A DNA stretch of 30,979 nt from Salinarchaeum sp. GTDB taxonomy: Archaea; Halobacteriota; Halobacteria; Halobacteriales; Salinarchaeaceae. Shown piece by piece: positions 9,800 to 30,979 of this stretch (within the stretch, counting starts at the first letter, position 1; each line of letters opens with the position of its first letter). A model generated the notes under the pieces. The model ran no database searches. It was not told where the DNA came from and saw only the letters and a list, made by a program, of their open reading frames with translations. The stretch lies in assembly GCA_041639835.1 (NCBI GenBank), contig JBEQBL010000001.1:1-30979 (forward strand). Reading direction: 5' to 3'. A program made the translations under genes and the position numbers.

Positions 9800-9813
9800 A
9801 TGGAGGCGTGAGT

Positions 9814-10188: not shown

Positions 10189-10190
10189 GT

Positions 10191-13900: not shown

Positions 13901-14036
13901 ATGCATCCAGCGCACTCGCTGTGGTGTCGCCGTCGGTTCGACGCTGTTGGGTCGCTGTTTGGTCGGTGCGATTCGAGAGGATACCAAGACGTTCGGCAAG
14001 CCGTTCGATCCGGCTTGGTTCAAATTTGTTTCCCAT
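10953..14036 (-). CDS. Molybdopterin (DMSO-reductase family) oxidoreductase catalytic subunit, Psr/Phs/Sre/Soe-like, no Tat signal
   Basis: N-terminal 4Fe-4S motif CFNCEAGC...CAKG, SWDEAL, candidate Mo-ligand Cys in SHTNICSS, DPRLSNTA, and a C-terminal dinucleotide-binding domain (VWIHTKDAKRLGL). Confidence 0.9.
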   Translation of the reverse strand: MGNKFEPSRIERLAERLGILSNRTDQTATQQRRTDGDTTASALDAYPDPTAWDHWVEYDATGDPTEYSVVPTACFNCEAGCGLLAYIDKDSGEIQKLEGNPEHPGSRGRNCAKGVATINQINDPKRIKYPLKRDGPRGSGEWTRVSWDEALNAIAGEMRETIQDGRENEITYHVGRPGYDGSMDRTINGWGIDGHNSHTNICSSGARAGYALWHKYDRPSADYSNADFILLLSAQLESGHYFNPHAQRILDSMDEGGELAVMDPRLSNTAAVADYWMPTQPGSEAAVLLAMAKVLLDEGLYDAEFIRQWTNWEQFLDEEYPDIGHDLEAYIDILQEDIYSTFTPEYAAAESGVEASTIRKVGKKIGHAAPRYASHIWRSAASGNEGGWQVSRTLHFLSVLTGSVGTKGGTAPNSWHKYDPEVPREPPQQKLWDQLQLPDEYPFAHYEMSQLLPYFLKEGRGKLSVYFTRVFNPVYTYPDGFSWIEVLQDPDKVGLHVALTPTWNETAYFADYVLPMGHSPERHDLQSSETHAGTWVTFRQPVHRRYAEREGEDIDHTYEVNPGEVWEEDEFWLELSWRLDEDGSLGIREHFESPYQEDDEPPRRMSVDEYYRYIFEHDEQLQAVAADAGMEPLEYMKRYGAFEASKNDYTLHEESLDPSILDDEDVVVDEYGTIRRRTDRSVTTRGDPTVDTALQDGGTTQQNRLHSESDGSDVLGVMVDGEPKRGFPTPTGKQQFYSKTMAEWGWEDEQYTLPHYIKSHVHPENIDYENGEMVLVPTFRLPTHIHSRSSNAKYLEEISHNNPVWIHTKDAKRLGLDTGNLCRVETEIGYFVNEVWVTESIKPGIVAMSHHMGQWKIDRDEDPDSEIEEGGDPYGKVSVDLTSDGHKWGIRQTEGITPFESKTDPDSERVWWESGGVPQNLTHAPHPDPISGMHCWHQQVTVTPAREDDAYGDVFVDTDQSFEIYREWLEKTNPAPGPNGLRRPKWLKRPIKPTTDPGEDDAWYVDGPVGRPQRWDTETRTAHTDND

Positions 14037-14038
14037 AG

Positions 14039-16013: not shown

Positions 16014-16478
16014 ATGGCTCATTCACCAGACCTGTGCCCGGAGGCCAGACACCTCTTTGACGGCTCCCCACAGGTAGTCCGGGTCGCACTGGCGATTGAA
16101 ACAACGATACACGATGTTTCCCCAACCGGTGATGAGGAACTTGCATTAGCACTTGGTCGTGTCCGAGTCGATGGGGCCCCACCGCCATCGGAGGTGCCAA
16201 CATTTGTGTCCGTAACTGATAGGACAATCACAACCGATAATCCACCGTACCTTCGAGGAGAATGGACTGTTGATCCTGGCGAGACACTGCAGGTGACGGG
16301 ACAGCTGGATTCCGAACTGGAGTTGTTAATCGACCCTCCCGTCACAGTCTCGTTTAGTGGCGCTCCATCGTCAGTTATCGAAACGATTGAACGCACACTT
16401 GCAGACATCTACCGCACTCGCGGACGATATCTTGAGCAGATCGATGCCGATGTTGCCACTCCACGCGTGGACGACTAA
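16014..16478 (+). CDS. Hypothetical protein (154 aa)
   Basis: Acidic ORF filling the gap between the Mo-enzyme and shdr operons; family not recognised. Confidence 0.6.
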   Translation: MAHSPDLCPEARHLFDGSPQVVRVALAIETTIHDVSPTGDEELALALGRVRVDGAPPPSEVPTFVSVTDRTITTDNPPYLRGEWTVDPGETLQVTGQLDSELELLIDPPVTVSFSGAPSSVIETIERTLADIYRTRGRYLEQIDADVATPRVDD

Positions 16479-16765
16479 TTGGCCCGTATTTCACTCAGGT
16501 GATACAGGAGCTGATCAAACGCAATCATGGTCAGTTCCTCTTCGTATGACTCAACAAGCCGGGCTGCATCTGCCTGTGGCCGTGTAATGTGTTCGCTAAA
16601 CTGCTCTTCTGCACACTCCGGGCAATTCAGTGTAAACTGTACCGCGTTGCCGGTGTCCGTGTCTATAATTGATAGTGTTAGTTCGGACCGATGGTCCTCG
16701 AACAGATGCTCATGCATCGCTTGCCGGGGCTTTTCCACTGGACAGTATGGGCACGACAGCGTCAT
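16475..16765 (-). CDS. Small zinc-finger-like protein (CPYC...HxxxxH...CPEC), last gene of the shdr operon
   Basis: Two CPxC motifs, His pair, C-terminal IAFDQLLYHL. 2-nt gap to the previous gene. Confidence 0.75.
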   Translation of the reverse strand: MTLSCPYCPVEKPRQAMHEHLFEDHRSELTLSIIDTDTGNAVQFTLNCPECAEEQFSEHITRPQADAARLVESYEEELTMIAFDQLLYHLSEIRAN

Positions 16766-16767
16766 GG

Positions 16768-17235
16768 TTAGAGCTTGAACTGATACTCAACCTCGTGTTT
16801 GTGTTCCGTGGCAAGTTCTTCAACTCCTGCCTGAAGTTCCTGGATGGCAAGTTGATGAGCACTGAGCCGTTCCCGAACTGTTTCAATATCGTCCTGTTGT
16901 TCTTGTGTGATTCGCTGAACTGTCGTCTGCACTCGTTCAAGCCTCTCCTCAAGTCGTTCGAACAACGTCGCAAGTGGCAGGGTTTCCCCATCAATAGTGA
17001 CCACCGGCTGCTCATCTTCGACCGTTACCGTTGGTCCCGTTGTTCCAGCCAAGTCGCCGATGGTCAGATCATGAACCGTCTCCGCGATGGCCATCTCGTA
17101 TGCATCCCCGATACAGTCCTGATGCTCCTGATCGTCGACAGCATCAATATGATCGCTGACAGCAGCAACTGTCGTAAACAGTCGGCCATCAGTGTCGGCA
17201 AACCGGCCACACAGTGGGCACGTATATACCTGCAT
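16768..17235 (-). CDS. CPxCG zinc-finger plus coiled-coil protein
   Basis: CPLCG...HI...D..H N-terminus and heptad-rich acidic C-terminus. 6 nt downstream of shdrB3. Confidence 0.7.
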   Translation of the reverse strand: MQVYTCPLCGRFADTDGRLFTTVAAVSDHIDAVDDQEHQDCIGDAYEMAIAETVHDLTIGDLAGTTGPTVTVEDEQPVVTIDGETLPLATLFERLEERLERVQTTVQRITQEQQDDIETVRERLSAHQLAIQELQAGVEELATEHKHEVEYQFKL

Positions 17236-17241
17236 CGTTGA

Positions 17242-18567
17242 TTAGTGTGGATCGGCCATTGCTTCGGCCACCAGTTCAATGATATCACGAACGTCCATAT
17301 CAGCATCCACAGTTTTCATGGCATCCTCAAATCGGGAGACCTCATACGGACAACAGACCGCAAGCGTATCTGCTGGTGTTTGTTTGGCTTCCCGGGCACG
17401 GTTGTCTGACATTCGTTCATCCTGATAGTCACCGGCAAAGCCATCAAGCCACATCCCCCCGCCACCGCCACCACAGCAATAACTATCCTGGCGGTTACGC
17501 GGCATTTCAACAAACTCAACGCCTGGAATTGCTGATAAAATTGTACGGGGAGCTTCATATTCGTCGTTGTGGCGACCAAGATAACATGGATCATGGAAGG
17601 TTACGGTGCGATCAAGCGACTGTCCCCATTCAATCTCATCGATTCGGTCGGCCAGTACTTGCGTATAATGTGATACCTCCTCATCCCAGCCATCAAGGAC
17701 CGTCTCGTACTCATGACTCAGGGCATTCAGCGCATGTGGCCCTGAAACCAGCAGTTGATCGTGCTCATACTGCGTGATTGCGGTAGCGTTTTCTTGGGCA
17801 ACCATCTCGAAGAGCCCGGCCTCTCCGGCAAGACGTTGGGAGTCACCATCGGTCTGTTCCTGATGTCCAAGAATGCCGTAGTCGATATCCAAAGCGGTGA
17901 GTACCTGCGCCATTGCTTTGGCAGCATCCTGGCCTCGGTCATGGTATGACCAGAAGTCCCCGACAATCCAGAGATATTCAACGGGGTCCGGGTCTGACTC
18001 ACGAGGAAGGATCGGAACATCGACATCGGCCTGACGCGTCCATTTGGCGCGTTTCTTGCTTGACTCTCCCATCGTATTGCCGTTCTGAAACACGTTTTCA
18101 AACATGTCCTGCAACTCATCGGGAATATCCCCGTCAGCAACCCGCTGTTCGCGCACCTTCGGAATAATATCGGTCATATCAACGCCTTTCGGACAGACCC
18201 GCACGCAGTTGCGACAGGTTGTACACAGCCATGCATCCGGACTATCCTCAAGATCGATGCCCAGTTCTGTCCGCCGGTATACCTTTCGGGGGCCATATGC
18301 CCCGCCGGCCTGATCAACCGGACAGACGCCTACGCATTGTGCACACTGATAGCACCGGCCAAGTGTTTCGCCGCCATCAAGATCCATCACCTCCTCAATT
18401 TTCCCTGGATTAAAACTCTCAATTACCCGTTCGCCGTACATCCGATTCCAGTGGCCGGAGACATCAAGACCCTCAACTTCAACCGTATCCTCTTGAGTAA
18501 CGTCGCCAGTACTACCGTACCGGCCTTCTACTTCGCGTCGTTTCTGTTGATCCTGTGAGTGTGACAT
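17242..18567 (-). CDS. shdrB3: sHdrB3-like HdrC2/HdrB2 fusion (2x[4Fe-4S] plus CCG domains)
   Basis: CYQCAQCVGVCP, CTTCRNCVRVCP, FHDPCYLGRHN, SYCCGGGGG, VCCPY. Position directly after shdrH. Confidence 0.78.
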   Translation of the reverse strand: MSHSQDQQKRREVEGRYGSTGDVTQEDTVEVEGLDVSGHWNRMYGERVIESFNPGKIEEVMDLDGGETLGRCYQCAQCVGVCPVDQAGGAYGPRKVYRRTELGIDLEDSPDAWLCTTCRNCVRVCPKGVDMTDIIPKVREQRVADGDIPDELQDMFENVFQNGNTMGESSKKRAKWTRQADVDVPILPRESDPDPVEYLWIVGDFWSYHDRGQDAAKAMAQVLTALDIDYGILGHQEQTDGDSQRLAGEAGLFEMVAQENATAITQYEHDQLLVSGPHALNALSHEYETVLDGWDEEVSHYTQVLADRIDEIEWGQSLDRTVTFHDPCYLGRHNDEYEAPRTILSAIPGVEFVEMPRNRQDSYCCGGGGGGMWLDGFAGDYQDERMSDNRAREAKQTPADTLAVCCPYEVSRFEDAMKTVDADMDVRDIIELVAEAMADPH

Positions 18568-19439
18568 TAGAATCCCTCCATTGGAAGCTGTTGTGGGTGC
18601 GTATCGGTCGTCTGCGTTGGAACCCCAAGGAGCCGACGCACGTACTCCTCATGATCCGGAATCGCATCCGTAAACTGCTTTGTCAGACGCATCGCTAACA
18701 CGAGATAAACATACGCCGCGTGGACGACCGCCATTGCCACTGTCGTCCCGTGGGGGCCGTCCAGAGCTGTCGTATCAAGGCCAAACTCGTCCTTTCGAGT
18801 AGCAACGCGGTCAACAGCATCACAAACGCTTGTATACATGGCCCCAGGTGTAGCGCCATCAAGATGGACATCATTCATCGTCATAAGGGGAACTACTCCT
18901 GTATACGTATCCGGGTGCCACATCCAGCGGGCCCATAGACTCCATTGTTGTGGGTCGACCTGATAGAGAAATTCAGCGGCCACGCTTCGGATAACCTGTG
19001 TGTCAGCACCTTCGACGCGCTCACAGAAGGTATTAAATCGCGTTTCAACCGATGCTGTCTCATTGAGTAGGTCGGCAGTAGCCTGCGCAAACGACTGGAG
19101 ACCGGTTGTCTGTAGAATCTCATCGACATGACGACGACTCGCAAAAACCTGTGTCAGCACCGTCTCAGCCTGTTCGCGTGTGAGATGAGGAGCCATTGTG
19201 AGTGTGTCCTGCATCGTCGATTGTTTGTCGGCCAGGGCCTCACGAATGGCTACAAGCGTGGCCGTGTCTAAATGGGTTTGCTCTCTGAGTTGTTCGATAA
19301 ATTCCCGGATAGTTTCGATATCAACAACATCCTCACCATCTGAGTGAAAACGCAATCCCTCCTTGCTCAGTGCTGCTGCCTTTTGAGCACTTGGCTGTCC
19401 GGCATCGACAATATCCGGCTCGCTGTTAACTGGATGCAT
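18567..19439 (-). CDS. shdrH: sHdrH ('Hyp') subunit of the sHdr complex
   Basis: Sits between shdrA and the C2/B2 gene. AEFLYQVDP..W.LWARWMW...TYTG segment resembles sHdrH as recalled. TAATG overlaps on both sides. Confidence 0.72.
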   Translation of the reverse strand: MHPVNSEPDIVDAGQPSAQKAAALSKEGLRFHSDGEDVVDIETIREFIEQLREQTHLDTATLVAIREALADKQSTMQDTLTMAPHLTREQAETVLTQVFASRRHVDEILQTTGLQSFAQATADLLNETASVETRFNTFCERVEGADTQVIRSVAAEFLYQVDPQQWSLWARWMWHPDTYTGVVPLMTMNDVHLDGATPGAMYTSVCDAVDRVATRKDEFGLDTTALDGPHGTTVAMAVVHAAYVYLVLAMRLTKQFTDAIPDHEEYVRRLLGVPTQTTDTHPQQLPMEGF

Positions 19440-20518
19440 TATTGTCCTCCGTCGGTTGCGGCTTTAGCCGGAATGGCTCGGACATCCGCAACAGCTTTCG
19501 CGGCTGCTGATCCGGCCATACTCACGGTTGTTTCAAGATCTTGCGGGCCGGCGGCTGCCCCAGCAACATACACTCCATCCCGCTCGGTCTCAACAGTTTC
19601 CAGGGGCATGCCGACGGTCTCAAGATAGCCATGCTCTTCAAGTGGGAGATCAAAGACCTCTGCCATCTGGAGTGTGCCAGTTGATGGCTCCATACCGGTT
19701 GAGAGTACCACAACATCCATGGGAATCTCATACGGACGTCCCATCGTTGTGTCCTCGCCTTTGACAAGGACTTGATCGCCCTGCTTGGTGATTTCGGAGG
19801 CAATACCGCGGACATATCGGACGTTGTGCTCCTCCTGTGCTTCCCAGTATAGTTCGTCCTCCCAGAACCCGTAGGTGCGGATGTCAATATAAAAGACCAT
19901 GATGGTTGCGTCGGGGTGCAGCTCCGCGATTTCTGTTGCCTCCTTTGAGGCAACCCCACAGCAGACCTTTGAACACCACTGATTGCCGATCTGTCGGTCC
20001 CGGGACCCCACGCATTGAATAAATCCGATCGTCTCTGGTGCTTCCCCGGTTGAGGGCCGGACAAACTGCCCATCACTGAGCATGTCCTCGGCATCAGGTA
20101 GTGTGATTACATCCTCAAACTGACTGTAATTGTACATTTGCGTCTCGTTTGTCGGGTCAAAATGGTCAAATCCGGTTGCAATGATCACCGACCCGGCGTC
20201 GACGGTTGTCTGCTCGTTCCCGCCATTTCTGGAGACTGTCAGCGTGAAATCACCAACACTGCCGGCTGCATCAACAACCTCGGCATCAGTGAGCAACTCG
20301 ATATGGTCGTGAGTGCGGAATTTCTCTAAGATCGGCTCCATCAACGCTTCTGTCTCCTTTCGCTCCGGTGTCAATGCAGCATAGTTGGCTTCATACGGTG
20401 TCCCACCGATTTCGGGTCGTTTTTCGATAACGATCGTTTCACTGCCGAGATCGGCGGCGCTGATTGCCGCCTTGAGTCCGGCAGGACCGGCTCCAATGAT
20501 TGCAATTGTGTCGTTCAT
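19439..20518 (-). CDS. shdrA: sHdrA, short FAD/[4Fe-4S] HdrA-like subunit
   Basis: GAGPAG Rossmann motif, IIATGF, QCVGSRD...WCSKVCC, DIRTYG. Only 359 aa, lacking the ferredoxin insert of methanogen HdrA. Confidence 0.9.
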   Translation of the reverse strand: MNDTIAIIGAGPAGLKAAISAADLGSETIVIEKRPEIGGTPYEANYAALTPERKETEALMEPILEKFRTHDHIELLTDAEVVDAAGSVGDFTLTVSRNGGNEQTTVDAGSVIIATGFDHFDPTNETQMYNYSQFEDVITLPDAEDMLSDGQFVRPSTGEAPETIGFIQCVGSRDRQIGNQWCSKVCCGVASKEATEIAELHPDATIMVFYIDIRTYGFWEDELYWEAQEEHNVRYVRGIASEITKQGDQVLVKGEDTTMGRPYEIPMDVVVLSTGMEPSTGTLQMAEVFDLPLEEHGYLETVGMPLETVETERDGVYVAGAAAGPQDLETTVSMAGSAAAKAVADVRAIPAKAATDGGQ

Positions 20519-20569
20519 AGTTTTGTGGATATCCTGATTGGATGGGTGGTTACTGTGCGATACATCGAG

Positions 20570-21733
20570 TTAGACATCATCCCATGTGATGTACTCCTTG
20601 TCACCATTCTCAATGGCATCAACGTCAGCTTCGAATTCAGCCCAGGCTTGTTCGTGATCGATCCCCATTTTCTCAAGCAGGGGTTCATAATCGGTCTTAT
20701 GCCAGTGTAACTGACAGACCTTGTACGGATGAGCCCCCATCGCCAGTGCCGCAAACTGCGCCTCGGACATTACCGGAATTCCCACGTCACGGTCATGAAC
20801 TTCGCCAGTTACCCACTGACTTGAATCAAGCGTCGTGACACAACCGGTATCATGAGTGATTGTCACATCCGGGTCAGCCTCATCTTTCATGCGCTCGATC
20901 TTTCGCTGGGTGGCGAATGACCGCGAGAAGTCACGTTCGACGAGGATATGCCGAAAGCCAAACCCACAGCAGTCATACCACGTTGAGTAATCAGCCACGT
21001 CGACACCGATTTCCTCAAGCAGTGCCGTGACGGTGGCCATCCGTTCGCCCCCATAAATCTCCGGATCATAAATGGCATCATCCTCGATAATTTTATGATA
21101 GTGACAGGCCGGATGGACGGTTGCTCTGATATCCGTCAGATCATATTCCAGATTGGCCGCAATCTCCTCACGAACAGCATGAGTCCATTCACTGTAATGG
21201 ACAATCTCCTCGGGGATGACAAGTTCATGCCCGAGTCGATCAAGGACCTCTCGGGCCTCCTCACGGACGGAGTCATGGCTCACAACCTGCTCGCGCACCT
21301 CCTTGTAGTGGCCAAAACTGGTGCCACAGTGAATCAGTGGATAATATCCGTCCTTTTTTGCTTGCCCGAAGTTCCGAAGGGCAACCCCAGCCTGGGCGGC
21401 TTCATTCGAAGTCGCACTGGCATAGAAGTTCCAGCCAGTACAGGAGGTCTGATCCTTGGGATCATAATAGTCATATCCAAGCTTGCGGTGCAACCAGAAA
21501 ATCGAGGTTGAGTAGCCGGGAATATGCCCACACTGTCCACAGGACTTGTGATGCCATGTACCCTCAAGTGGAATCTTCTTTGTTCGCCCGTCTTTGCGGG
21601 TCACTTCGCGGTACGGCTCTGGCACTTCAAGCATCTCAACTTCACCGGCAGCGTCTAACTCCCGAAGTTTTTCGCGTACATCGTGTTTGTGCTCTCCACG
21701 ATGCGATACCGTTGGTGGTGATGACTCTGACAT
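20570..21733 (-). CDS. shdrB1: sHdrB1, CCG-domain subunit
   Basis: WHHKSCGQCGHIPGY, DQTSCTGW, HCGTSFG, HPACHY, WYDCCGFGFRH, HDTGC. Confidence 0.9.
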   Translation of the reverse strand: MSESSPPTVSHRGEHKHDVREKLRELDAAGEVEMLEVPEPYREVTRKDGRTKKIPLEGTWHHKSCGQCGHIPGYSTSIFWLHRKLGYDYYDPKDQTSCTGWNFYASATSNEAAQAGVALRNFGQAKKDGYYPLIHCGTSFGHYKEVREQVVSHDSVREEAREVLDRLGHELVIPEEIVHYSEWTHAVREEIAANLEYDLTDIRATVHPACHYHKIIEDDAIYDPEIYGGERMATVTALLEEIGVDVADYSTWYDCCGFGFRHILVERDFSRSFATQRKIERMKDEADPDVTITHDTGCVTTLDSSQWVTGEVHDRDVGIPVMSEAQFAALAMGAHPYKVCQLHWHKTDYEPLLEKMGIDHEQAWAEFEADVDAIENGDKEYITWDDV

Positions 21734-21735
21734 AC

Positions 21736-22518
21736 TTAGTCACCTGCCTCAAATTCCGCTAATCGATCGTCGATCATGTCTGCAAGGATCATATGAATGC
21801 CCGGATCAATATCCTCGATTAGCTCCAAGACATCGGTTTCCTCCCAGATGACAAACAATTCTGTGACGGTGCGATCCGAGACATCCCATGCACGACCGGT
21901 GGTGTGTAATGTTTCCGGTGGGATTGCTCGGCGCCATTCCTCCATATTTTCAGCCTCCTTCCGGGCCTCCGGTCCCCAGTCCGGAAACGCATCCGGGGTG
22001 ATCATATCGGGAGATACCTGTGTCCCGGTCGACATGATCTTATAAATCACCCGTTCATACCCCTCAAGGGCATCCTGTGCACTATCAAGGCTTGCGTCAA
22101 CGGCCTTCTCACGCATGATCATAATCAATCCGCCAGGGGAGTTTTGCCGAGGGCAGCGCGTACAGGAATAACATTGCGAGCAGTTCCAGATGTCCTCATT
22201 GAGCTGTTCGAAAAAGAGGTCAACGTCCTCCCGGTAGATCGACTGGGCGATGCGGCGTGGGCTGAAGTCATAAAACCGCGCTGAGGGACAAGCCGATACA
22301 CAGACGCCACACCCATAGCAGGCGAAAATGGCCTCGTCGTGCCGGATATCCTCAGTCACCTCCTCGAATAACGCCTCCTTGTCTTCATGATCCCAGTCGT
22401 CGTAGGCCGTCTCATACATCGAGCCATGGGCCTTCCGCTGCTCCATCGCTTCCGGAGTGCGTGTGACCTCCGTCACTTGTTGTCGGTCCGCTGTCGGTAG
22501 TTCTTGTGCGTCTGACAT
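21736..22518 (-). CDS. shdrC1: sHdrC1, 2x[4Fe-4S] subunit
   Basis: CYGCGVCVSACP and CSQCYSCTRCP, FPDWGP. First gene of the operon, start trimmed to ATG 22518. Confidence 0.88.
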   Translation of the reverse strand: MSDAQELPTADRQQVTEVTRTPEAMEQRKAHGSMYETAYDDWDHEDKEALFEEVTEDIRHDEAIFACYGCGVCVSACPSARFYDFSPRRIAQSIYREDVDLFFEQLNEDIWNCSQCYSCTRCPRQNSPGGLIMIMREKAVDASLDSAQDALEGYERVIYKIMSTGTQVSPDMITPDAFPDWGPEARKEAENMEEWRRAIPPETLHTTGRAWDVSDRTVTELFVIWEETDVLELIEDIDPGIHMILADMIDDRLAEFEAGD

Positions 22519-22726
22519 TGCTACAGTCCGCGGAAATCGGTTTGCAAACGATGCACCAGGCTGTCGTGATTGTTGCCTGTCATATGGTCTATTCAACGAT
22601 GCGTATAAAGCTTCGCCTGGCGGAATACAAGCGTTTCATACTGTTTGGCCGCCTATTTATATTCGGTGTCCGGTTGACCGGTTACCCAAGTTATTTTACT
22701 TGTTACTAACAGAAACGCAACCTACA

Positions 22727-24877
22727 ATGCCTATCCCCAGTCGTATCGACGCGATTGTTCTTGAGACGGTAACGCGTGATGTCTTTGCCGAGTTGACTCC
22801 TCTGATGGAGGGTATTTTCTATCTCGCTGCCGCTGGCTCTATTCTTGCCTTTCTTATCGGTGTGCGACGACGAATTCAGCGATACCGCCGTGGGCAGGGA
22901 GATCCGGACCGGCTAACAGCCCTCCCATCACGGATCATCGCCGGCACACAATCCGTTCTCTCAGGACGTACCATCTTTAACAATAATCCCTACGCGGGTG
23001 TTATGCATATGCTGGTGCTTTGGGGGTTTTTAGCGCTGTTTGTTGCGACAACAATCCTGCTTATTGAGGTTGATATTCTGATGCCCGCGAGTGGTCCGAT
23101 CAAATATCTCTTCGAGGCGGTTGGGCTGACGGAACTGACCGCGGCCGAAGGCACGCGGGTGTTCTGGGAGGGATCATTCTACCTGCTCTATCAGCTTGCC
23201 GTGGATGTTTTTGGACTTTTGTTCGTCCTTGGTGTTGGCCTGGCATTGTTTCGACGCGTTGCTCTTGATGTGCCCCGTCTTGACCTCTCGCGGGTCGACG
23301 ATGTTGACGATGATCGCCGTCGCTGGCGGCTTGATGACTGGGCCTTTCTTGGCTTTCTACTGGCAATCGGTATCACTGGTTTCCTGATTGAGGGCATCCG
23401 GCTTGCGGTTGACCAGCCGGCATGGGCATGGCCATGGAATCCTGTTGGGGCACCCCTCGCAACAGCTCTTGAGACTGTATACTGGGGCTCACTTGCTGAG
23501 ACATATGCGACAGTCTGGTGGATCCATGCACTGATCGCGCTTGGCTTTGTGGCGTATCTCCCGTATTCAAAGGCCGTCCATATGCTCACAGGTGGTGTCA
23601 GTTTAGCCTTACATGATTCCGCTGCCGGCCGCCGACTCCCAACAGTCCCAGACGACACCGCGCCGGAGGCTCAGGGGTACACCGATGTTGAGGATTTCTC
23701 CTGGAAGCATTTGCTTGAGGCCGATGCCTGCACGAAATGTGGACGCTGTCATTCGGTGTGTCCCGCCCGTAATGCCGGCACAGACCTGTCACCTCGGGAT
23801 CTCATCCTTGACATGCGCAAGGAATTGGCGACTGATGGGGGCACAGTGACCAATGAGACAGTCAGTAGCGATCGACTATGGGCGTGTACGACCTGTCGAT
23901 CTTGTATCGAGGTGTGCCCGGTCGGGATCGAACATGTACCGCAGATTGTGCAGATGCGTCGCTCACTTATTGAGGATGGTGAGTTAGACAGCAATCTCCA
24001 AGGGACGTTAATGGATCTCATGCAGCGGGAGAACTCCTTCGGTGAATCAGGGAAGAAGCGTGCGATGTGGTCTCGCGAACTTGATTTCAAGCCGCCGGAT
24101 GCCCGCCGCGAGTCCGTCGAGTATCTGTGGTTTGTCGGCGACTATGCGTCCTATCATGATACTGGCAAGCCCCGTGCCCGGACTCTTGCTCGGCTGTTTG
24201 AGGCTGCTGATCTTGACTGGGGGATTCTGTATGAGGATGAGGTCAATGCGGGCAATGATGTACGACGCGTTGGTGAGGAAGGCCTCTTTGAGATGCTTGC
24301 TGAGAAAAATGTTGAGACGCTTGATCAGTGTGACTACGAACAGATTGTCACAACGGATCCACATGTATTGAATACCCTTCGGAACGAGTACCCGGATCTT
24401 GATTTTGAAGCTGATGTTATTCATTATACAACACTTCTGCGGGAGTTACTTGCGGAGGGGACCATTGAGCTTGCTGGTGAACTCGACGGCACTGTCACCT
24501 ACCATGATCCGTGTTATCTTGGTCGGTACAACCGTGTCTTTGAGGCGCCGCGTGAGCTTATCACCGCAACAGGTGTCGACCTCCAGGAGATGGACCGGAA
24601 CAAGGCTGACTCCTTCTGCTGTGGGGCCGGTGGCGGACGGATCTATATGGATACCTCCGATGTTGAGACCCGACCCAGTGTCATGCGTATTGACGAAGCG
24701 CTTGAGATCGATGATCTTGATTACTTTGTCGTCGCCTGCCCGAAGGATATGGCAATGTATACGGATGCTGTCAAGTCCTTCGACGAGGAACTTGCGGTTG
24801 TTGACATCCTTGACCTACTGGCGGCCGATATGACAACTCCAGATCTGGATGACAACGGAGTGATCCCTCGCTCCTGA
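22727..24877 (+). CDS. Membrane Fe-S/CCG oxidoreductase (EMO/HdrF/FadF-like; probable ETF:menaquinone oxidoreductase)
   Basis: NarI/HdrE-like TM region with His residues (MHMLV, WWIHAL, KAVHML), CTKCGRCHSVCP, CTTCRSCIEVCP, YHDPCYLGR, CCGAGGG. Start trimmed to ATG 22727. Confidence 0.85.
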   Translation: MPIPSRIDAIVLETVTRDVFAELTPLMEGIFYLAAAGSILAFLIGVRRRIQRYRRGQGDPDRLTALPSRIIAGTQSVLSGRTIFNNNPYAGVMHMLVLWGFLALFVATTILLIEVDILMPASGPIKYLFEAVGLTELTAAEGTRVFWEGSFYLLYQLAVDVFGLLFVLGVGLALFRRVALDVPRLDLSRVDDVDDDRRRWRLDDWAFLGFLLAIGITGFLIEGIRLAVDQPAWAWPWNPVGAPLATALETVYWGSLAETYATVWWIHALIALGFVAYLPYSKAVHMLTGGVSLALHDSAAGRRLPTVPDDTAPEAQGYTDVEDFSWKHLLEADACTKCGRCHSVCPARNAGTDLSPRDLILDMRKELATDGGTVTNETVSSDRLWACTTCRSCIEVCPVGIEHVPQIVQMRRSLIEDGELDSNLQGTLMDLMQRENSFGESGKKRAMWSRELDFKPPDARRESVEYLWFVGDYASYHDTGKPRARTLARLFEAADLDWGILYEDEVNAGNDVRRVGEEGLFEMLAEKNVETLDQCDYEQIVTTDPHVLNTLRNEYPDLDFEADVIHYTTLLRELLAEGTIELAGELDGTVTYHDPCYLGRYNRVFEAPRELITATGVDLQEMDRNKADSFCCGAGGGRIYMDTSDVETRPSVMRIDEALEIDDLDYFVVACPKDMAMYTDAVKSFDEELAVVDILDLLAADMTTPDLDDNGVIPRS

Positions 24878-24957
24878 TCTTGTCTTCGGGATCTCAGTTC
24901 GACATCCCCTGATTGTGAGGGAGAGTGCTTAGTCCCGTAGCGCCGGTATCACACAAT

Positions 24958-26028
24958 ATGCCAGCCGCACAGTTTATCGACTTTGGCCACACAGATCCGG
25001 CGACAAGCCAGGCGGTGTACCACGGACTTGCTGCGACGCTTGCCCCACCGGCCAACCCCATTGTCGATGTCGTAACGCCGACCGACCAGTATGTGTGCAT
25101 TGGAGCTCATCAAGACTTTGCCAAAGCCGTTGACCGGGAGGCAATCGATCGTCATGACCTACCGGTGTACCGTCGCCATGTCGGTGGGGGAACAGTCTTG
25201 CTGGATGCGGATCAACTGTTCTGGCATTTTATTCTTCCGGCATCGAAGTGCCCGGCCCCTAACACGTTGTTCCAACGCTATCTCCAGCCGGTCATTGACA
25301 CGTTTCAGGCCCTTGGAATCGACGCACAATACGATCCGGTTAATGATATCGTCGTTGGCGATCAAAAAATCGCCGGGACTGGGGCTGGTCGTATTGACGA
25401 TGCGATTATGATTGTTGGCTCATTCATGTTTGATTTCGATATTGAGACGATGGTCTCGGTGACTCCAACACCATCACCTGAGTTCGAACAAGCCTTTCGT
25501 CAGGGACTTCGGACGAATATGACGACAATTAGTGAGCAGTTGACTTCTGTCCCGGACCGTACAACTATCTTGCAGCAGTTTCAGGAGACGCTTGCCGACC
25601 AACTTGACTGGACTCTGACTCCAACCACCCCAACAGATGAACAGCAGTCGGCCATTGATACGTATCGTGACACATTAGCTGATCCTGACTGGCTTGCACG
25701 AACTGGCTTGGCCTCGGGACGGAGTCGTCGCAAACTCAAAGCGAAGACCCATCTCGCTGAGGGTCAATGTGAGACCCCCGGTGGAATAGTCAATGCAACG
25801 GTGCTCACAGCCGAGGAAGTCATTGATGATCTACTTCTCACAGGTGATTTGCAGGTGTTCCCCAAGTCAGGGCTTGCACAGCTTGCGACTGATCTCATTG
25901 GCTGTCCGGTTGTCCGTGAGCAGTTGGAAGCAATGATCGACGAGAGTCTTCAGCGTCATGAGATTGTCTGCCCGGGAGTCGAACCAGCAGATATCGCAAC
26001 GGCCATTCTTCGGGCTACCGCCGCGTAA
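24958..26028 (+). CDS. lplA: Lipoate-protein ligase with fused C-terminal domain (sLpl(AB)-like)
   Basis: VCIGAHQ, RRHVGGGTVLLD, PVNDI....KIAGTG, and a C-terminal LplB-like region (PGGIV...LTGD). Confidence 0.85.
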   Translation: MPAAQFIDFGHTDPATSQAVYHGLAATLAPPANPIVDVVTPTDQYVCIGAHQDFAKAVDREAIDRHDLPVYRRHVGGGTVLLDADQLFWHFILPASKCPAPNTLFQRYLQPVIDTFQALGIDAQYDPVNDIVVGDQKIAGTGAGRIDDAIMIVGSFMFDFDIETMVSVTPTPSPEFEQAFRQGLRTNMTTISEQLTSVPDRTTILQQFQETLADQLDWTLTPTTPTDEQQSAIDTYRDTLADPDWLARTGLASGRSRRKLKAKTHLAEGQCETPGGIVNATVLTAEEVIDDLLLTGDLQVFPKSGLAQLATDLIGCPVVREQLEAMIDESLQRHEIVCPGVEPADIATAILRATAA

Positions 26029-26052
26029 GTACACCCGGTTTAGGCGATCACA

Positions 26053-26604
26053 TTAATCGAGCCATGAGCCGTTCTGGGCATCGAGGTCGGTGTCAAACAC
26101 AATATTGAACGTATGATAACCACGCATAAGTGACACGAAATGAACAAGTTGGACGAGTGCTTGTTCATTAAGGCCATGCTCGCGGAGATGATGAATATCT
26201 GTCCTGGTAACCGCGTGTGGCGCCGTATTAACCGTGACCGCAAAGTCAATAATTGCCTGCCGTCGGGCGGTAAACTCATACTGGCGCCAGTCCTCGCGAA
26301 TCTGTGCGACCCCCTCAGTGGAGATTGTATGCTCTGCGAGTAACGCCGCATGATAGTGCTGACAGTACTCACACTCAATTTCAACAGCCAGCACAAGCGC
26401 GATAATCTCAAGCGTCTCAGGAGCGAGTTGACCGGCAAGCAGAATCCGGCGGTTAAGATCAAGGAGACTCCGTAGTAGTAACGGAAAGTGGGCCTCTAAG
26501 CGGTGCTGGTTTGGGACAAGTCCATGAATATCCGCAATCTGCTCGAATAAGTCCTCTACATCCGAGTCAATTGCCGATTCCGGGGGCGGATCAATTCGAC
26601 TCAT
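26053..26604 (-). CDS. AhpD/carboxymuconolactone decarboxylase family peroxidase-related protein
   Basis: CEYCQHYH (CxxCxxxH), G.L...T.E.IAL, and the LREHGL...LV.LV pattern. Confidence 0.82.
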   Translation of the reverse strand: MSRIDPPPESAIDSDVEDLFEQIADIHGLVPNQHRLEAHFPLLLRSLLDLNRRILLAGQLAPETLEIIALVLAVEIECEYCQHYHAALLAEHTISTEGVAQIREDWRQYEFTARRQAIIDFAVTVNTAPHAVTRTDIHHLREHGLNEQALVQLVHFVSLMRGYHTFNIVFDTDLDAQNGSWLD

Positions 26605-26667
26605 TGGCTAAGCCACCTCCGTGTAACCATCGTAGCGCACTAAGCAGCATCGCTTTTTATCGTCGTT

Positions 26668-27033
26668 TCAGACACGCGATTCAGGTGCGTCGGGGACCTC
26701 CTCCGTGATCGCCTCGCTGACACGTCCAGTGAGATCCTCAACAACGCCCAGATACCCCTCCGTTAGGACCGTTGCTTGGATACCATCTCCGTCTAGTGAT
26801 CTGGATAGTAGCCCCACTTGCACAAGGTCATTGACACGCTCGCTTAGCGTTGCCTTTGTTAGCCCGATGTCGGCCGCCAGGTCATCAATTGTCAGTGGTC
26901 CATCAGCATGCACAGTTTGGAGCAGCCAGTAATTAATCGGGTCCGCCCCCCGACGAATGACACGTAGGGTAAACTCTCGAACCGCCTCCTCACGCACGGT
27001 CTCGTCTTCAACAAGTTTGGCAGTCCACGTCAT
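26668..27033 (-). CDS. Winged-HTH protein (MarR/ArsR-like; possibly sHdrI-like)
   Basis: GPLTIDDLAADIGLTKATLSERVNDLVQVGLL helix-turn-helix. Start at ATG 27033 overlaps the upstream ORF stop. Confidence 0.75.
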   Translation of the reverse strand: MTWTAKLVEDETVREEAVREFTLRVIRRGADPINYWLLQTVHADGPLTIDDLAADIGLTKATLSERVNDLVQVGLLSRSLDGDGIQATVLTEGYLGVVEDLTGRVSEAITEEVPDAPESRV

Positions 27034-27227
27034 TGCTCGGGGTTCACACCACACTGGCTGGAATCCTGCATAACATTTGTCGGACGCTCAGCATCGACCT
27101 GCCAGACAACCGCATCGCGTCGGTCGACAGTACGGGCGATTTCAGTGAATCGGCGAACGATGCCCTCAGCCATCTTTGCATGATCTGTGGCTGCTGTCTG
27201 GTCGTGTGATTTCTCAGAGTCAGTCAT
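27030..27227 (-). CDS. Small hypothetical protein (65 aa)
   Basis: ATGA overlap with the HTH gene; no family recognised. Confidence 0.45.
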   Translation of the reverse strand: MTDSEKSHDQTAATDHAKMAEGIVRRFTEIARTVDRRDAVVWQVDAERPTNVMQDSSQCGVNPEQ

Positions 27228-27409
27228 GATAGCGTCTACACTATGGTAGGTCAGACCAAGGCATTAAATGGCAGTGTTTCGGTATTTTGGCCGCTACCGA
27301 TCATCCTGGGTCTGCTACTCATCTCGGATACTCGATGTTCATTCCACTCCGTCGGGTGCCGGGATGTTAGCGATACCTGCGGTATCCGGATGTTATCGAG
27401 CAACGGGCA

Positions 27410-28630
27410 TTAGACCCGTCGGAGGACCGTTGCAATTCCCTGTCCAAAGCCAATGCCCATTGTTGAAAGGGCATATGTCCCATGGCCACGATGTAACTCG
27501 TGTGCTAGCTTGCCGATCATCATCGCCCCTGTCGCACCAAGTGGATGGCCATGAGCAATCGCTCCGCCGAGTGTATTGACCCGTTCAATGGAAACTCCAG
27601 TTTCAACAAGCCACGCAGCAAGGACCGCTGCAAAGGCTTCATTGACCTCAAACAAGTCAATCTCAGCGAGATCGAGCTCCGTTGTTCCAAGGACCGACTC
27701 AGTTGCTGGGATTGGTCCTTTGCCCATGTCATTTGGATGGGTGCCGACAGTATCGGTCGCGATTATCTCTGCCATGGGCTCCCAGTTGTACTTCGCCGCG
27801 GTTCGACGCGTTGTGATAATCGTGGCCGCGGCCCCATCAACAATGCCTGAGGAGTTTCCGGCATGATGCACTCCATTGCCGGGATCACGAAACGCAAGCG
27901 GCAGTTCGCCAAGTGCCTCCACATCGGTTTCCGGACGTGGGTGCTCATCGGTCTCAAGATAAATATGCTCACCCTCAAGGGTCGTCTCAATGGGCACAAT
28001 CTGATCATCGTATCGGCCCATCTCCCAGGCCCGTTGCCAGCGTCGTTGAGAGCGAACCGCCAGTTGATCAAGTTCACGACGGGTAAAACCATACTCAGCC
28101 GCCAGTCGCTCAGCTGCCTCGCCTTGCTCGATGATTTCATCATAGTGGTTGAAATATGTCTCTGACACGGCATGCCGATCAAGATAGCCATCCTTGGCGG
28201 CTCCATCCGAGCCCATCGGGACACGGGTCATATGTTCCACCCCTCCAGCGATCACGATATCAGCCTCCCCGGCTGCAACTGTTCGGGTGGCCATCGCAAC
28301 AGCTTCCTGACCAGCACCACAGAGCCGATTGACGTGCACTCCGGGGACATGATCACCAAGTCCGGCGGTGAGTGCCGCCAACCGACCAATATTAAGCCCT
28401 TGATCGTCGACCGGGGTGACACAACCGTAGATCACATCATCGATATCCCGTGGTCTAAGCCCATTTCGCTCCGCAAGTGCCTGGAGGGGTATCGCAGCAA
28501 GATCCTGTGCATGTAACTCGCGTAAGCTTCCCTCAAAGGCACCAAATGGTGTTCGTGCTGCATCAACGATCACCGGCTGTCGAGGCATGCCATCCGACAC
28601 TGCCGTGTTTGCTGCCGTATGTTCTGACAT
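27410..28630 (-). CDS. Thiolase-family protein with a non-canonical C-terminal catalytic motif
   Basis: RTPFG, NRLCGAG (nucleophile Cys), NEAF and GHPLGATG are present. The C-terminal motif reads TMGIGFGQG instead of TMCIGxGQG. Confidence 0.88.
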   Translation of the reverse strand: MSEHTAANTAVSDGMPRQPVIVDAARTPFGAFEGSLRELHAQDLAAIPLQALAERNGLRPRDIDDVIYGCVTPVDDQGLNIGRLAALTAGLGDHVPGVHVNRLCGAGQEAVAMATRTVAAGEADIVIAGGVEHMTRVPMGSDGAAKDGYLDRHAVSETYFNHYDEIIEQGEAAERLAAEYGFTRRELDQLAVRSQRRWQRAWEMGRYDDQIVPIETTLEGEHIYLETDEHPRPETDVEALGELPLAFRDPGNGVHHAGNSSGIVDGAAATIITTRRTAAKYNWEPMAEIIATDTVGTHPNDMGKGPIPATESVLGTTELDLAEIDLFEVNEAFAAVLAAWLVETGVSIERVNTLGGAIAHGHPLGATGAMMIGKLAHELHRGHGTYALSTMGIGFGQGIATVLRRV

Positions 28631-28632
28631 GC

Positions 28633-29505
28633 TTATCGTCCTGTTGTCCCATCCGGGATTGCAAGCGGGGTTGGAACGCCCTTTGCCGTGATTGTTTCAC
28701 CAGTCATAAACGACGATGCCGGACTCGCAAGAAACTGCGCGATATCAGCGATCTCTGCTGGAGTGCCAATTCGCCGGTTGGGATCGGTTCGATCAAGATC
28801 CACAGTCACATCCATAACCTGCTCAATCCCGGGCGTGTCAACAAATCCCGGTGAGATACAGTTGACTCGAACCCCGCGCTCAGACCACTCCGTCGCCAAA
28901 CTGGTTGTGAGATTCATCACTCCAGCCTTGGCGGCGCCATAGGGGCTGATATATTCCGCTCCTACCTCGCCTGCTAGACTCGCGATGTTAATTACCGACC
29001 CCCCACCGGCGGCAAGGGACTCAGCGGCGGCCTGCGTTGGATGAAACACCCCATCAAGATTAATTTCAACAAGTGTTCGCCAGCCCTTGTAACTGAGATC
29101 CTCAAAGGCCTCTTGGAACATGCCACCAACATTGTTGACAAGCACATCAAGCCCGCCAAATTCGTCCATTGCGGTTGCAACCACACGGTCAACGGCTTCG
29201 CGGTTTCGAACATCACATTCGACGGCTACAGCGGTCCCCGGCGACTCGGTAGTGTTGATCGTCTCCGCAACCGGATCAATTCGATCTGCCGCTCGAGAAC
29301 AGATAACAACGTCAGCGCCTGCTGCAGTAAACCGTTCAGCGATTGTCCGGCCGATGCCACGTGAGGCACCGGTGATGATAGCGGTTTTACCGGCAATGCC
29401 AAACCGCTGGGCAGTTACACTCTCCGTGGATGGTGTGTTCTTGTGGTGGGGATGGTTCTCGGTCGATCCAAATGTCGTATCGTGGTGATCGCTCTCTGAG
29501 TTCAT
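28633..29505 (-). CDS. SDR family NAD(P)-dependent oxidoreductase (FabG-like)
   Basis: TGASRGIG, NNVGG, YGAAK (YxxxK), VNCISPG. Confidence 0.92.
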   Translation of the reverse strand: MNSESDHHDTTFGSTENHPHHKNTPSTESVTAQRFGIAGKTAIITGASRGIGRTIAERFTAAGADVVICSRAADRIDPVAETINTTESPGTAVAVECDVRNREAVDRVVATAMDEFGGLDVLVNNVGGMFQEAFEDLSYKGWRTLVEINLDGVFHPTQAAAESLAAGGGSVINIASLAGEVGAEYISPYGAAKAGVMNLTTSLATEWSERGVRVNCISPGFVDTPGIEQVMDVTVDLDRTDPNRRIGTPAEIADIAQFLASPASSFMTGETITAKGVPTPLAIPDGTTGR

Positions 29506-29587
29506 GACTCTCGATGCGAGACTGCTGATCTGAGTGAATTACACAACTAGTGTTGTAAAGTACTGGTGCCACGTGATGGGATGCGAG

Positions 29588-30169
29588 TCAGATGAGTAAC
29601 TGAATATCGGCATCAGCCATCTCATCAATGGCAGCGGCTGCGCCAACGCCGGTGGTGACCCCATCATAGAAGTCATCGTCCGCATATCCCATCAACTCCT
29701 GTGTCATCTGACAGGCCTGTATTTCTACGCCAGCCTCAAGACAGGTATCAACCAGTTCATTCACACTTGCCGTTCCGACATCGTCGATCTGCCGGTTCAT
29801 CATCCATGTGGTCATCCGATCCATCCCCGGCAGGATGGCGATGATATTGGGGACCGGCATGGCTGGCTGTCCGGTTGAACTCATTTTGAGATTATCCATT
29901 TTCTCTTCGTGCAAGATATCAAGCGCCCAGAACGTGTGAAAAAGCGTTACGTTCCAGCCAAAGGCTGCCGCCGTCGATGCGAGAATCAGTGGGGGATAGG
30001 CCATATCAAGGGTCCCCTTGGTCGCGATAATCGACATCTTTGATACATCGTTGTCGACGGTCTCCCGCAAGTCGGCAACCTCTTCACGGAGTTGCTTGAC
30101 CTCCGCCTCAAGATCGGCGATTTGCTGGGGACTGTACTCCGGGTCAGGGGTGGCTGTCTCTGAACTCAT
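29588..30169 (-). CDS. dsrE2: DsrE2-like sulfur-relay protein with N-terminal coiled coil
   Basis: TKGTLDMAYPPLILASTAAA, FHTFWAL, ACQMT (conserved Cys). Start trimmed to ATG 30169. Confidence 0.82.
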   Translation of the reverse strand: MSSETATPDPEYSPQQIADLEAEVKQLREEVADLRETVDNDVSKMSIIATKGTLDMAYPPLILASTAAAFGWNVTLFHTFWALDILHEEKMDNLKMSSTGQPAMPVPNIIAILPGMDRMTTWMMNRQIDDVGTASVNELVDTCLEAGVEIQACQMTQELMGYADDDFYDGVTTGVGAAAAIDEMADADIQLLI

Positions 30170-30368
30170 CGTTGGATGCGCTACCGGAGCGAGATTGACA
30201 TGACTCGCCCTGCAGTGTACCCTATCACCCACATACCAACGGTAAAAAGTTTGTGACATGAGAACATTTCTGGGGGTACCGGCTACCAAATCACCCGTCT
30301 AAGCCGGCGGAACCTCCGGTCGACGAAAGCTTGATTAGGGTTTGTGATTGTTAGACATGTGACGTACG

Positions 30369-30611
30369 ATGTCAGTTGAAGTCACAGCCGACCGTACGCT
30401 TGATGCAACCGGACTGACCTGTCCGATGCCCGTTGTACAGACAAAATCGGAGCTGGATGAGCTTAAAGACGGTGAGGTACTTGAGATTCTTGCAACAGAC
30501 CCCGGTGCTGAGGAGGATATTCCGGCGTTAGCATCCCGGACCGGAAATGAGTTTCTCGGTGTTGAAGATCGTGATGAGACATTGGCCTTGTACCTCCGAC
30601 GTACCGACTGA
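30369..30611 (+). CDS. tusA: TusA family sulfurtransferase
   Basis: LDATGLTCPMP (CPxP motif), LEILATDPG..EDI, 80 aa. Confidence 0.92.
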   Translation: MSVEVTADRTLDATGLTCPMPVVQTKSELDELKDGEVLEILATDPGAEEDIPALASRTGNEFLGVEDRDETLALYLRRTD

Positions 30612-30680
30612 GGCGTTGCTAGGGGACGGTTATGCGCTTATCAGCAATGAAGAGCTGTTAATCAGTACGTCCTGACAACC

Positions 30681-30698
30681 GGACACTACGCTGTGTCC
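30681..30698. terminator. Hairpin between convergent tusA and etfA (GGACAC-TACGCT-GTGTCC)
   Basis: 6-bp inverted repeat just past the etfA stop. No strong T-tract, so function is uncertain. Confidence 0.25.
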
Positions 30699-30700
30699 AG

Positions 30701-30979
30701 TCAGACCTTTTCTTGCATCGCCGGCAGCACCTCGAAGAGGTCATGCGGGATGCCATAGTCGGCATAGTCGAAAATCGGTGCCTCGGCGTCGTTGTTGATT
30801 GCGACGATCGTCTCCGCATCCTCCATTCCTTCAAGATGCTCCGGTGCGCCACTGATGCCAGCCGCAATATACAGTTCCGGATCGACCTTCTGTCCAGATT
30901 TACCGACCTGCCGACTCTTCGGCAACCAGCCGTTGTCGATCAGAGGCCGGGACATTGCAAGTTCTACGCCGATTGACTC
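30701..30979 (-). CDS. etfA: Electron transfer flavoprotein alpha subunit, 3' end (truncated by window edge)
   Basis: SRPLID.GW, RQVGKSGQKV.P.LYIA.GISGA..H..GM, AINND.EAPIF FAD-binding motifs. Confidence 0.93.
   Translation of the reverse strand, partial: ESIGVELAMSRPLIDNGWLPKSRQVGKSGQKVDPELYIAAGISGAPEHLEGMEDAETIVAINNDAEAPIFDYADYGIPHDLFEVLPAMQEKV

Follow-up and report, generated by a model that had tools for sequence, protein, structure and literature searches.

A metagenome-assembled genome (MAG) of the haloarchaeon Salinarchaeum sp. carries what is very probably a true type II sHdr (heterodisulfide reductase-like) system. The system was analyzed in a window of 30,979 nt that represents the entire contig C1 (JBEQBL010000001.1) of the MAG (assembly GCA_041639835.1; 1.98 Mb spread over 294 contigs, with a completeness of 82.6% and a contamination of 1.2%), and its genes were called from a listing of open reading frames (ORFs) combined with Pfam and NCBIfam scans. 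As the best overall explanation we propose, with moderate confidence, that a complete type II sHdr-LbpA sulfur-oxidation island was transferred into this lineage and has been kept there under purifying selection. What the analysis shows directly is the gene content and synteny of the island, the intactness of its cofactor ligands, its adaptation to salt, the purifying selection acting on it, its narrow distribution and its affinity to bacterial clusters. By analogy with known systems we infer its substrate, the direction of its electron flow and a role as an auxiliary source of electrons in a heterotroph.

The core of the island consists of seven closely spaced minus-strand genes that encode sHdrC1, B1, A, H and B3 followed by orf155 and orf96 (Table 1). 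The latter two genes extend the operon beyond the gene list of an initial annotation of this DNA, whereas the shdr, EMO, ligase, dsrE2, tusA and etfA genes named there were all recovered at their proposed positions by ORF and family scans. The stop and start codons, described earlier as overlapping along the operon, do so by 1 nt at each of the A/H and H/B3 junctions, but C1 and B1 are separated by 2 nt and B1 and A by 51 nt. When read from the ATG at 22518, sHdrC1 has 260 residues, the same as in the island of a sister species (locus L004). The short flavoprotein sHdrA matches PDB entry 6TJR over its full length (E 4.7e-82); this best solved relative scores over methanogen HdrA, which matches in the core only, and we take it to be the sHdrA structure of Hyphomicrobium denitrificans. 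No Pfam or NCBIfam match was obtained for sHdrH. In sHdrB3, two CxxCxxCxxxC 4Fe-4S motifs are combined with a single CCG domain, in agreement with the published description of this protein as having one non-cubane cluster only (PMC11094781). Among the two small genes at the end of the operon, orf155 is kept in all haloarchaeal islands (39-55% identity in L004 and a more distant island, L173) and has no homologue in the bacterial loci. In contrast, homologues of orf96 (25-37% identity, with 4/4 Cys kept) are encoded immediately after shdrB3 in 23 or more of the bacterial type II clusters, and its product looks like an unnamed conserved member of these clusters.

Type II clusters are operationally defined by the presence of shdrC1B1AHB3 and etfAB in one syntenic cluster (PMC11582611), and this arrangement is found once contig C1 is joined to another contig of the MAG, C49. 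The two are bridged by the public contig CAZEIP010000002.1 (L171, 90.5 kb), whose identity is 99.86% with the window and 99.79% with C49. On this contig the ends of C1 and C49 abut with 8 bp missing, and etfAB is contiguous at about 8 kb from shdrC1. The island therefore does not stop at position 30979, where it had been taken to end, but runs on into C49, and its joined length from orf96 to the distal lbpA is about 22 kb. The gene order on C49 is LbpA (153 aa), a radical SAM protein similar to LipS1, a ligase of the Lpl(AB) type, a radical SAM protein similar to LipS2, a ligase on the opposite strand, DsrE3, LbpA (156 aa), EtfB and the N-terminal 223 residues of EtfA. With etfAB, EMO, LbpA, LipS1/S2-like proteins, sLpl, TusA, DsrE2 and a DsrE3A-like protein in synteny with the core, the evidence supports the initial reading of this region as a haloarchaeal type II sHdr island, and the sense in which it used the term type II agrees with the literature (PMC11094781).

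A GcvH-family search of the MAG detected three genes, with the best GcvH match on contig C45 and the two further copies, identified as LbpA, on C49. The lipoyl lysine is kept in both LbpA copies as Lys72 and Lys71 within the motif ES(S/A)K. The initial annotation would have taken the lack of an LbpA/LipS system in the genome as refuting its reading; C49 adds both LbpA proteins as well as the LipS1- and LipS2-like enzymes, and this objection falls away. The genes for the LipS1- and LipS2-like enzymes and three LplA-type ligases are syntenic within the island, and the ligase gene of the window is kept in L004 and in two related islands, L173 and L175. Among the sulfur carriers, DsrE2 has no predicted transmembrane (TM) helix, while the DsrE3 protein of C49 is nearest to PDB entry 3MC3, which is named DsrE3A in published work. 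For the proposed transfer of electrons to the membrane, the island encodes an EMO-like protein that contains a QmoC-like membrane part, two 4Fe-4S motifs and a CCG domain. Four N-terminal TM helices were predicted in it by a hydropathy scan, and a fifth hydrophobic stretch near residues 265-285 was noted by eye.

Table 1. Annotated features of the window (positions on contig C1).
Feature	Position	Strand	Assignment and remarks
RdfA (rod-determining factor A)	4447-5040		Family match, 188 bits
ABC transporter (Pst-like) with a trio of DsrE-like genes	5904-10544		Interval between the Mo enzyme gene and rdfA
Mo-bisPGD enzyme and fused FeS-NrfD subunit	10953-15796	-	Domain scans; 1027 aa and 585 aa
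orf96	16475-16765	-	Small Zn-ribbon protein (2 x CxxC); last operon gene, 2 nt past orf155
orf155	16768-17235	-	Coiled-coil protein with N-terminal CxxC; starts 6 nt past shdrB3
sHdrB3	17242-18567	-	C2-B2 fusion, 441 aa; Pfam Fer4_8 and CCG; 12/12 conserved Cys
sHdrH	18567-19439	-	Position-based homology; 23-37% identity in 62 bacterial type II clusters
sHdrA	19439-20518	-	Short FAD/[4Fe-4S] flavoprotein, 359 aa; 4/4 conserved Cys
sHdrB1	20570-21733	-	HdrB-like, CCG domain; proposed catalytic subunit; 63-71% identity to sHdrB1 of bacterial type II; 8/8 conserved Cys
sHdrC1	21736-22518	-	HdrC-like, 2 x [4Fe-4S] ferredoxin-like subunit; 8/8 conserved Cys
EMO-like membrane protein	22727-24877	+	ETF:menaquinone oxidoreductase type, 716 aa, divergent from shdrC1; 12/12 conserved Cys
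Lipoate:protein ligase-like	24958-26028	+	PF21948 LplA-B_cat, E 3.8e-33; one of three in the island
AhpD/CMD-family protein	26053-26604	-	PF02627; CxxC motif
Winged-helix regulator	26668-27033	-	MarR/ArsR-like, helix-turn-helix (HTH) families; 121 aa
Thiolase and SDR	27410-29505	-	Pfam; between dsrE2 and the regulator gene
DsrE2-type sulfur carrier	29588-30169	-	PF13686, E 1.3e-44; conserved Cys kept (1/1)
TusA sulfur carrier	30369-30611	+	TusA family; CPxP motif, Cys18 kept (1/1)
EtfA, C-terminal 92 residues	30701-30979	-	PF00766; truncated by the contig end, rest on C49

Comparison with known systems places the island closest to the type II clusters of bacteria. Those of Sulfobacillus, Chloroflexota, Actinomycetota and Marinisomatota have the same subunits, core gene order, one-CCG B3 fusion, EtfAB and EMO, and they also share LbpA, LipS1/S2, sLpl, TusA, DsrE2, a DsrE3A-like protein, the HTH regulator and the Zn-ribbon ORF past shdrB3. 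The island of the window differs in its haloarchaeal host, its acid-shifted proteins, the addition of the AhpD/CMD protein and orf155, the adjacent native molybdenum (Mo) enzyme and the inserted thiolase and SDR genes, and in some haloarchaeal variants no EMO was found at its usual position. The bacterial cluster shdrC1B1AHB3-etfAB-emo was reportedly described by Justice in 2014. The same arrangement is given for bacterial type II clusters by Tanabe et al. 2024 (PMC11094781), where a survey of GTDB R207 found type II in 12 bacterial phyla and in one archaeal phylum, Thermoplasmatota. The Thermoplasmatota likewise combine an archaeal host with a bacterial-type cluster; however, DsrE3B is the sole transferase linked to their clusters (PMC11094781), whereas TusA, DsrE2 and a DsrE3A-like protein are linked in the island of the window and the host phylum is different.

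The type I system of H. denitrificans shares homology over the full length of sHdrA (6TJR), as well as C1, B1, H, a lipoylated LbpA and the TusA/DsrE relay. In contrast to the window island, with its C2-B2 fusion and the presence of both EtfAB and EMO, it has separate sHdrC2 and sHdrB2 proteins and neither EtfAB nor EMO, and an assignment to type I was ruled out on these grounds. The type I sHdr-LbpA pathway is said to be genetically proven, by Koch and Dahl in 2018 and Cao in 2018, as a route of sulfane-sulfur oxidation in H. denitrificans. Methanogen HdrABC belongs to the same fold families for the A core, B (CCG) and C, but its HdrA of about 650 aa has extra ferredoxin and Mvh-binding domains compared with 359 aa in the window, and LbpA, TusA/DsrE and EtfAB/EMO are not part of that system. 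The scores of the island proteins against all NCBIfam Hdr equivalogs fall far under the cut-offs; for sHdrA these are 231-264 bits against cut-offs of 1100-1400, and a methanogenic HdrABC was ruled out as well.

The distribution of the system among haloarchaea is narrow. A survey of related genomes detected sHdrB1 in two of four congeners (MAGs 73-87% complete), but not in any of 36 further genomes from the order, in none of 400 sampled genomes of the class (E <= 1e-30, the genome of the window aside) and in none of 400 sampled genomes of the phylum (E <= 1e-60). In a collection of 5.8 billion proteins, only metagenome proteins (79-92%) exceeded 72% identity to sHdrB1, and the next matches were bacterial, from Anaerolineae, Acidimicrobiia, Armatimonadota and Methylomirabilota. 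Those sHdrB1 proteins that are 79-81% identical to that of the window reside in similar but rearranged islands (L173-L175).

To describe the bacterial relatives, 80 named genome loci encoding the nearest relatives of sHdrB1 were searched by tblastn with every island protein. Identities in these type II loci were 48-62% for C1, 62-70% for B1, 49-59% for A, 23-37% for H, 48-55% for B3 and 33-52% for EMO. The remaining proteins gave about 28-47% for EtfA/B, up to 53% for LbpA, 32-49% for DsrE3, 31-50% for TusA, 30-42% for DsrE2 and 34-45% for LipS1/S2. Homologues thus span the whole cluster, including the HTH regulator and orf96, yet not every gene is present in every locus. The core genes, shdrC1-B1-A-H-B3, share one strand and the type II order in the window and are homologous, gene by gene, to 72 named type II loci.

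Concatenated alignments of C1, B1, A and B3 (1322 columns) were used for tree building, with 72 taxa under LG+G4 and 42 taxa under LG+C20+F+G4 PMSF, with ultrafast bootstrap and SH-aLRT support. All haloarchaeal sequences group in a single clade on a long stem (support 100/100). This clade joins four marine Marinisomatota MAGs, an uncultured bacterium and the MAG of 'Methanobacteriota archaeon NP112', a bipartition supported at 100/98 under LG+C20 PMSF. The last of these, locus L023 (PCBV01000010.1), is a marine archaeal MAG with type II sHdr. It thus falls in the clade nearest to the haloarchaea, which themselves lie outside the Marinisomatota/L023 group. The nesting of L023 within the Marinisomatota suggests a separate transfer from bacteria to archaea in the marine water column. 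As judged from sequence relationships, the island of the window was apparently gained horizontally from a bacterial-type lineage by the ancestor of a small haloarchaeal group. Taken together, the distribution, the tree and the ratios of nonsynonymous to synonymous substitution rates (dN/dS) given below point to one old acquisition followed by amelioration and purifying selection. A new host lineage for type II sHdr, reached by inter-domain transfer and with a few haloarchaea-specific accessories, is supported.

The mechanism proposed for the island follows the published type II model and the homology of its proteins to the type I system of Hyphomicrobium. Sulfane sulfur would be mobilized, for instance, by rhodaneses of the genome (five rhodanese domains were found in the MAG), and the persulfide would be relayed via the DsrE3A-like protein or DsrE2 and TusA to lipoylated LbpA and the sHdrC1B1A-H-B3 complex. 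This complex would oxidize sulfane sulfur to sulfite in the cytoplasm, and the electrons would be handed by EtfAB to EMO in the membrane, and from there to menaquinone and onward into the respiratory chain. A dedicated lipoate set, consisting of three Lpl-type ligases, LipS1 and LipS2, would mature the two LbpA proteins. The resulting sulfite might either be oxidized by the adjacent cytoplasm-facing Mo enzyme or be exported by TauE, of which the MAG encodes one. By analogy with type I, we consider it rather probable that the island oxidizes sulfane sulfur to sulfite and delivers electrons to menaquinone. That the adjacent Mo enzyme would complete this route as far as sulfate is a tentative proposal of clearly lower probability.

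Several observations weigh against this interpretation. Type II sHdr systems remain uncharacterized both genetically and biochemically (PMC11094781), and the function proposed here therefore rests on homology to type I. The best NCBIfam matches of three accessory proteins score under the respective cut-offs: 153.9 bits against 210 for DsrE2 (with DsrE2 as the matching family), 196.8 against 230 for LipS1 and 190.1 against 270 for LipS2, all conserved Cys being kept in the two latter proteins. In the islands L173, L174 and L175, no EMO gene occupies the slot between the ligase gene and shdrC1, so that the electron exit may differ among haloarchaeal lineages. No obvious route of sulfur entry was found in the 82.6%-complete MAG, in a search whose families did not include SQR. 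No RNA run is among the sequencing runs listed for the operon or for shdrB1, which says nothing on its silence. Finally, the tree is unrooted, with no type I outgroup, and its halophile rows fail the composition test; because of the missing root and this compositional bias no donor is named.

The most serious alternative accepts the same genes but assigns them a non-lithotrophic role, with negligible energy gain, in the detoxification of persulfide and polysulfide or in the processing of sulfur derived from organosulfur compounds such as dimethyl sulfide (DMS), methanethiol or products of dimethylsulfoniopropionate. Many type II hosts are heterotrophs for which sulfur oxidation is not known, and the Hyphomicrobium pathway is reported to serve DMS degradation as well, with Koch & Dahl 2018 cited for this. 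The MAG yielded no Sox, DoxD or YeeE, and the AhpD-like protein added in the haloarchaea has a CxxC motif. A search of the MAG, within the limits of its 82.6% completeness, gave no SUOX-type sulfite oxidase, no YeeE/SoxT and no DoxD; type II hosts are reported to be without SoxT (PMC11582611), and the MAG agrees with this. However, a dedicated EtfAB-EMO link to the quinone pool fits respiratory input better than simple detoxification, and so does the strong purifying selection on about 20 genes. We therefore regard the non-lithotrophic role as unlikely on its own, and it is compatible with sulfane-sulfur oxidation that feeds the quinone pool.

A second alternative reverses the direction of the system. 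Electrons from acyl-CoA oxidation would pass via EtfAB/EMO or the Hdr-like module to a disulfide, polysulfide or lipoyl disulfide, and the system would serve to respire sulfur or disulfides or to bifurcate electrons. Such a reading could draw on the thiolase and SDR genes inside the island of the window species, on the reversibility, in principle, of Hdr-type enzymes and on the existence of sulfur-reducing haloarchaea. The thiolase and SDR genes, however, occur in L171 and L172, assemblies near-identical to the window, and are absent from L004, L173 and L175. They thus represent a species-specific insertion, probably a recent one, rather than a conserved part of the island, and an acyl-CoA link through them was rejected as a part of the conserved system. 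Moreover, the short sHdrA of 359 aa is devoid of the ferredoxin-binding domains of bifurcating HdrA, and the island shares its conserved partners, LbpA and sulfur carriers, with oxidative systems. A reductive direction consequently appears improbable, and oxidation of sulfane sulfur is retained as the preferred reading.

The integrity of the island bears on the possibility that it is a decaying, non-functional relic of transfer. A Cys column was counted as conserved when 90% or more of the 18-80 bacterial orthologues compared have it. Every such Cys is retained in the window (Table 1) and on C49 (DsrE3 1/1, LipS1 5/5 and LipS2 6/6), as are both lipoyl lysines, in line with the intact cofactor motifs noted at first. 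The acidic composition noted at the same time was confirmed in all 13 tested island proteins, whose isoelectric points range from 4.05 to 5.0 compared with 4.5 to 7.0 in bacterial orthologues, each lying below the mean of its orthologues; examples are B1 (5.0 versus 6.2), EMO (4.5 versus 7.0) and TusA (4.1 versus 5.9). Between the window and L004, dS exceeds 2 and is saturated or nearly so, whereas dN stays at 0.05-0.12 in the core subunits. For genes that allow dS to be estimated, dN/dS is 0.03-0.17, with values below 0.1 for the core genes concerned; the comparison spans three diverged lineages, and synonymous sites are saturated for the remaining genes. A relic would be in keeping with the absence of the island from two of the four congeneric MAGs, which are only 73-76% complete, and with the variants in which EMO is not at its usual position. 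Neither frameshifts nor internal stops were found, all cofactor ligands are retained, and the core dN/dS lies well below 0.1 or dS is otherwise saturated across three diverged lineages, so that decay is very improbable.

By the marker protein aEF-2, the host is an uncultured Halobacteriales haloarchaeon related to Salinarchaeum. The aEF-2 of the MAG shares 93% and 90% identity with the proteins of two MAGs labelled as Salinarchaeum sp. and 81-85% with those of many cultured Halobacteriales. In addition to the island, contig C1 carries RdfA, a family described in Haloferax, and a Mo enzyme that has exclusively haloarchaeal closest relatives. The arrangement of the island is repeated in MAGs of two congeners, on a JGI contig of 139 kb and in two assemblies from NCBI, one of them with the 90.5-kb contig, and DNA of the window is present in runs of at least two independent studies, one of a hypersaline lake and one of a sediment. 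The MAG is fragmented and the nearest named sHdr homologues are bacterial, as would be seen with a bacterial contig mis-binned into a haloarchaeal MAG or a chimeric assembly, but RdfA and the haloarchaeal Mo enzyme on the same contig, the halophile-type isoelectric points of all island proteins, the repeated arrangement and the recovery in independent studies exclude such an artefact in practice and leave it the least credible of the alternatives.

Next to the island lie the genes for the Mo enzyme and a fused FeS-NrfD protein, the latter preceding the former. No twin-arginine motif was seen before a hydrophobic region when the N-terminus of the Mo enzyme (10953-14036) was read, and no TM segment was found in it, which suggests that it faces the cytoplasm; six TM helices were predicted in the NrfD part of its partner. 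SoeABC is a cytoplasm-facing, quinone-reducing sulfite dehydrogenase, and its representatives in Allochromatium and Aquifex likewise combine a Mo enzyme without a Tat signal with iron-sulfur and NrfD-type modules. However, SoeB and SoeC are separate proteins, whereas both modules are fused in the 585 aa of the window protein. On these features the Mo enzyme is a reasonable candidate for a putative cytoplasmic sulfite dehydrogenase. Its NCBIfam matches are to the generic DMSO-reductase family, far under cut-off, with no assignment to Psr, Phs, Ttr, Dms or Soe, and ESM Atlas returned only generic 'molybdopterin oxidoreductase' clusters. An AlphaFold2 model built from a 32-sequence alignment had a mean pLDDT of 53.5, too poor for a fold search.

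The Mo enzyme also adjoins the island in L004, and in L175 the FeS-NrfD gene does. Homologues with 51-54% identity lie beside some bacterial type II clusters, such as those of Oscillochloris (L044) and loci L051, L065 and L071. Orthologues with 67-82% identity are known from many haloarchaeal genera, including Haladaptatus, Natrinema, Halovenus and Natronomonas, and they were detected in 7 of 200 sampled genomes of the class, from four families. Since these include haloarchaea without sHdr, the enzyme is a native, patchily distributed haloarchaeal gene and no part of the transferred island; the initial reading had drawn on it for a route to sulfate. The same correction applies to a DsrEFH-like relay proposed earlier. 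In the sister species, RdfA abuts the Mo enzyme gene and neither the ABC transporter nor the trio of DsrE-like genes is at that position, and the trio and the transporter are thus a second species-specific insertion of sulfur-related genes.

Among the accessory genes, that for the AhpD/CMD-family protein is present in every haloarchaeal island examined for it (L004, L171, L173 and L175) and in none of the 80 bacterial loci. AhpD-type proteins are known as partners of lipoyl proteins, and the island member may therefore interact with LbpA. In its most extended form, the proposal would describe a lithoheterotroph at or near salt saturation in which sHdr converts sulfane sulfur to sulfite, a fused SoeABC-like Mo enzyme converts sulfite to sulfate, both feed menaquinone and the AhpD-like CxxC protein acts as the redox partner of LbpA; this full scheme is possible but doubtful. 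Of the 80 type II loci from bacteria, 16 contain a homologue of the winged-helix regulator (27-41% identity), and L004 has one with 68%. All haloarchaeal islands also share a small ORF located upstream of the regulator gene. The regulator product as called has no Cys; the sulfane-sulfur sensors of type I organisms, sHdrR and SoxR, work through Cys. As a further observation on the rearranged islands, L173-L175 carry rhodanese genes, haloarchaeal-type regulators similar to TrmB/HVO_A0114 or a ParA/Mrp-like gene for iron-sulfur assembly, and the FeS-NrfD gene is also present.

Whether such a system had already been reported was left to a literature check by the initial annotation, and a full-text search found no paper reporting sHdr in haloarchaea, Halobacteria or Halobacteriota. 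In a 2026 study of hypersaline mats, Hdr-like systems are described in bacterial MAGs only. In all, the island documents an inter-domain transfer of about 20 genes followed by the acidification of all transferred proteins, and with it the known hosts of the type II system, itself still uncharacterized, come to include a second archaeal phylum. Haloarchaea are regarded as aerobic or sulfur-reducing heterotrophs, and the only sulfur oxidation known from them is an incomplete one, in which thiosulfate is converted to tetrathionate. If the proposed function is true, one haloarchaeal lineage would be able to turn sulfane sulfur into sulfite in its cytoplasm with a coupling to the quinone pool, and the oxidative sulfur cycle would reach the archaeal part of hypersaline communities. 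The island also provides a protein set adapted to a genetically tractable group, and its expression in Haloferax could open type II sHdr to experiment.

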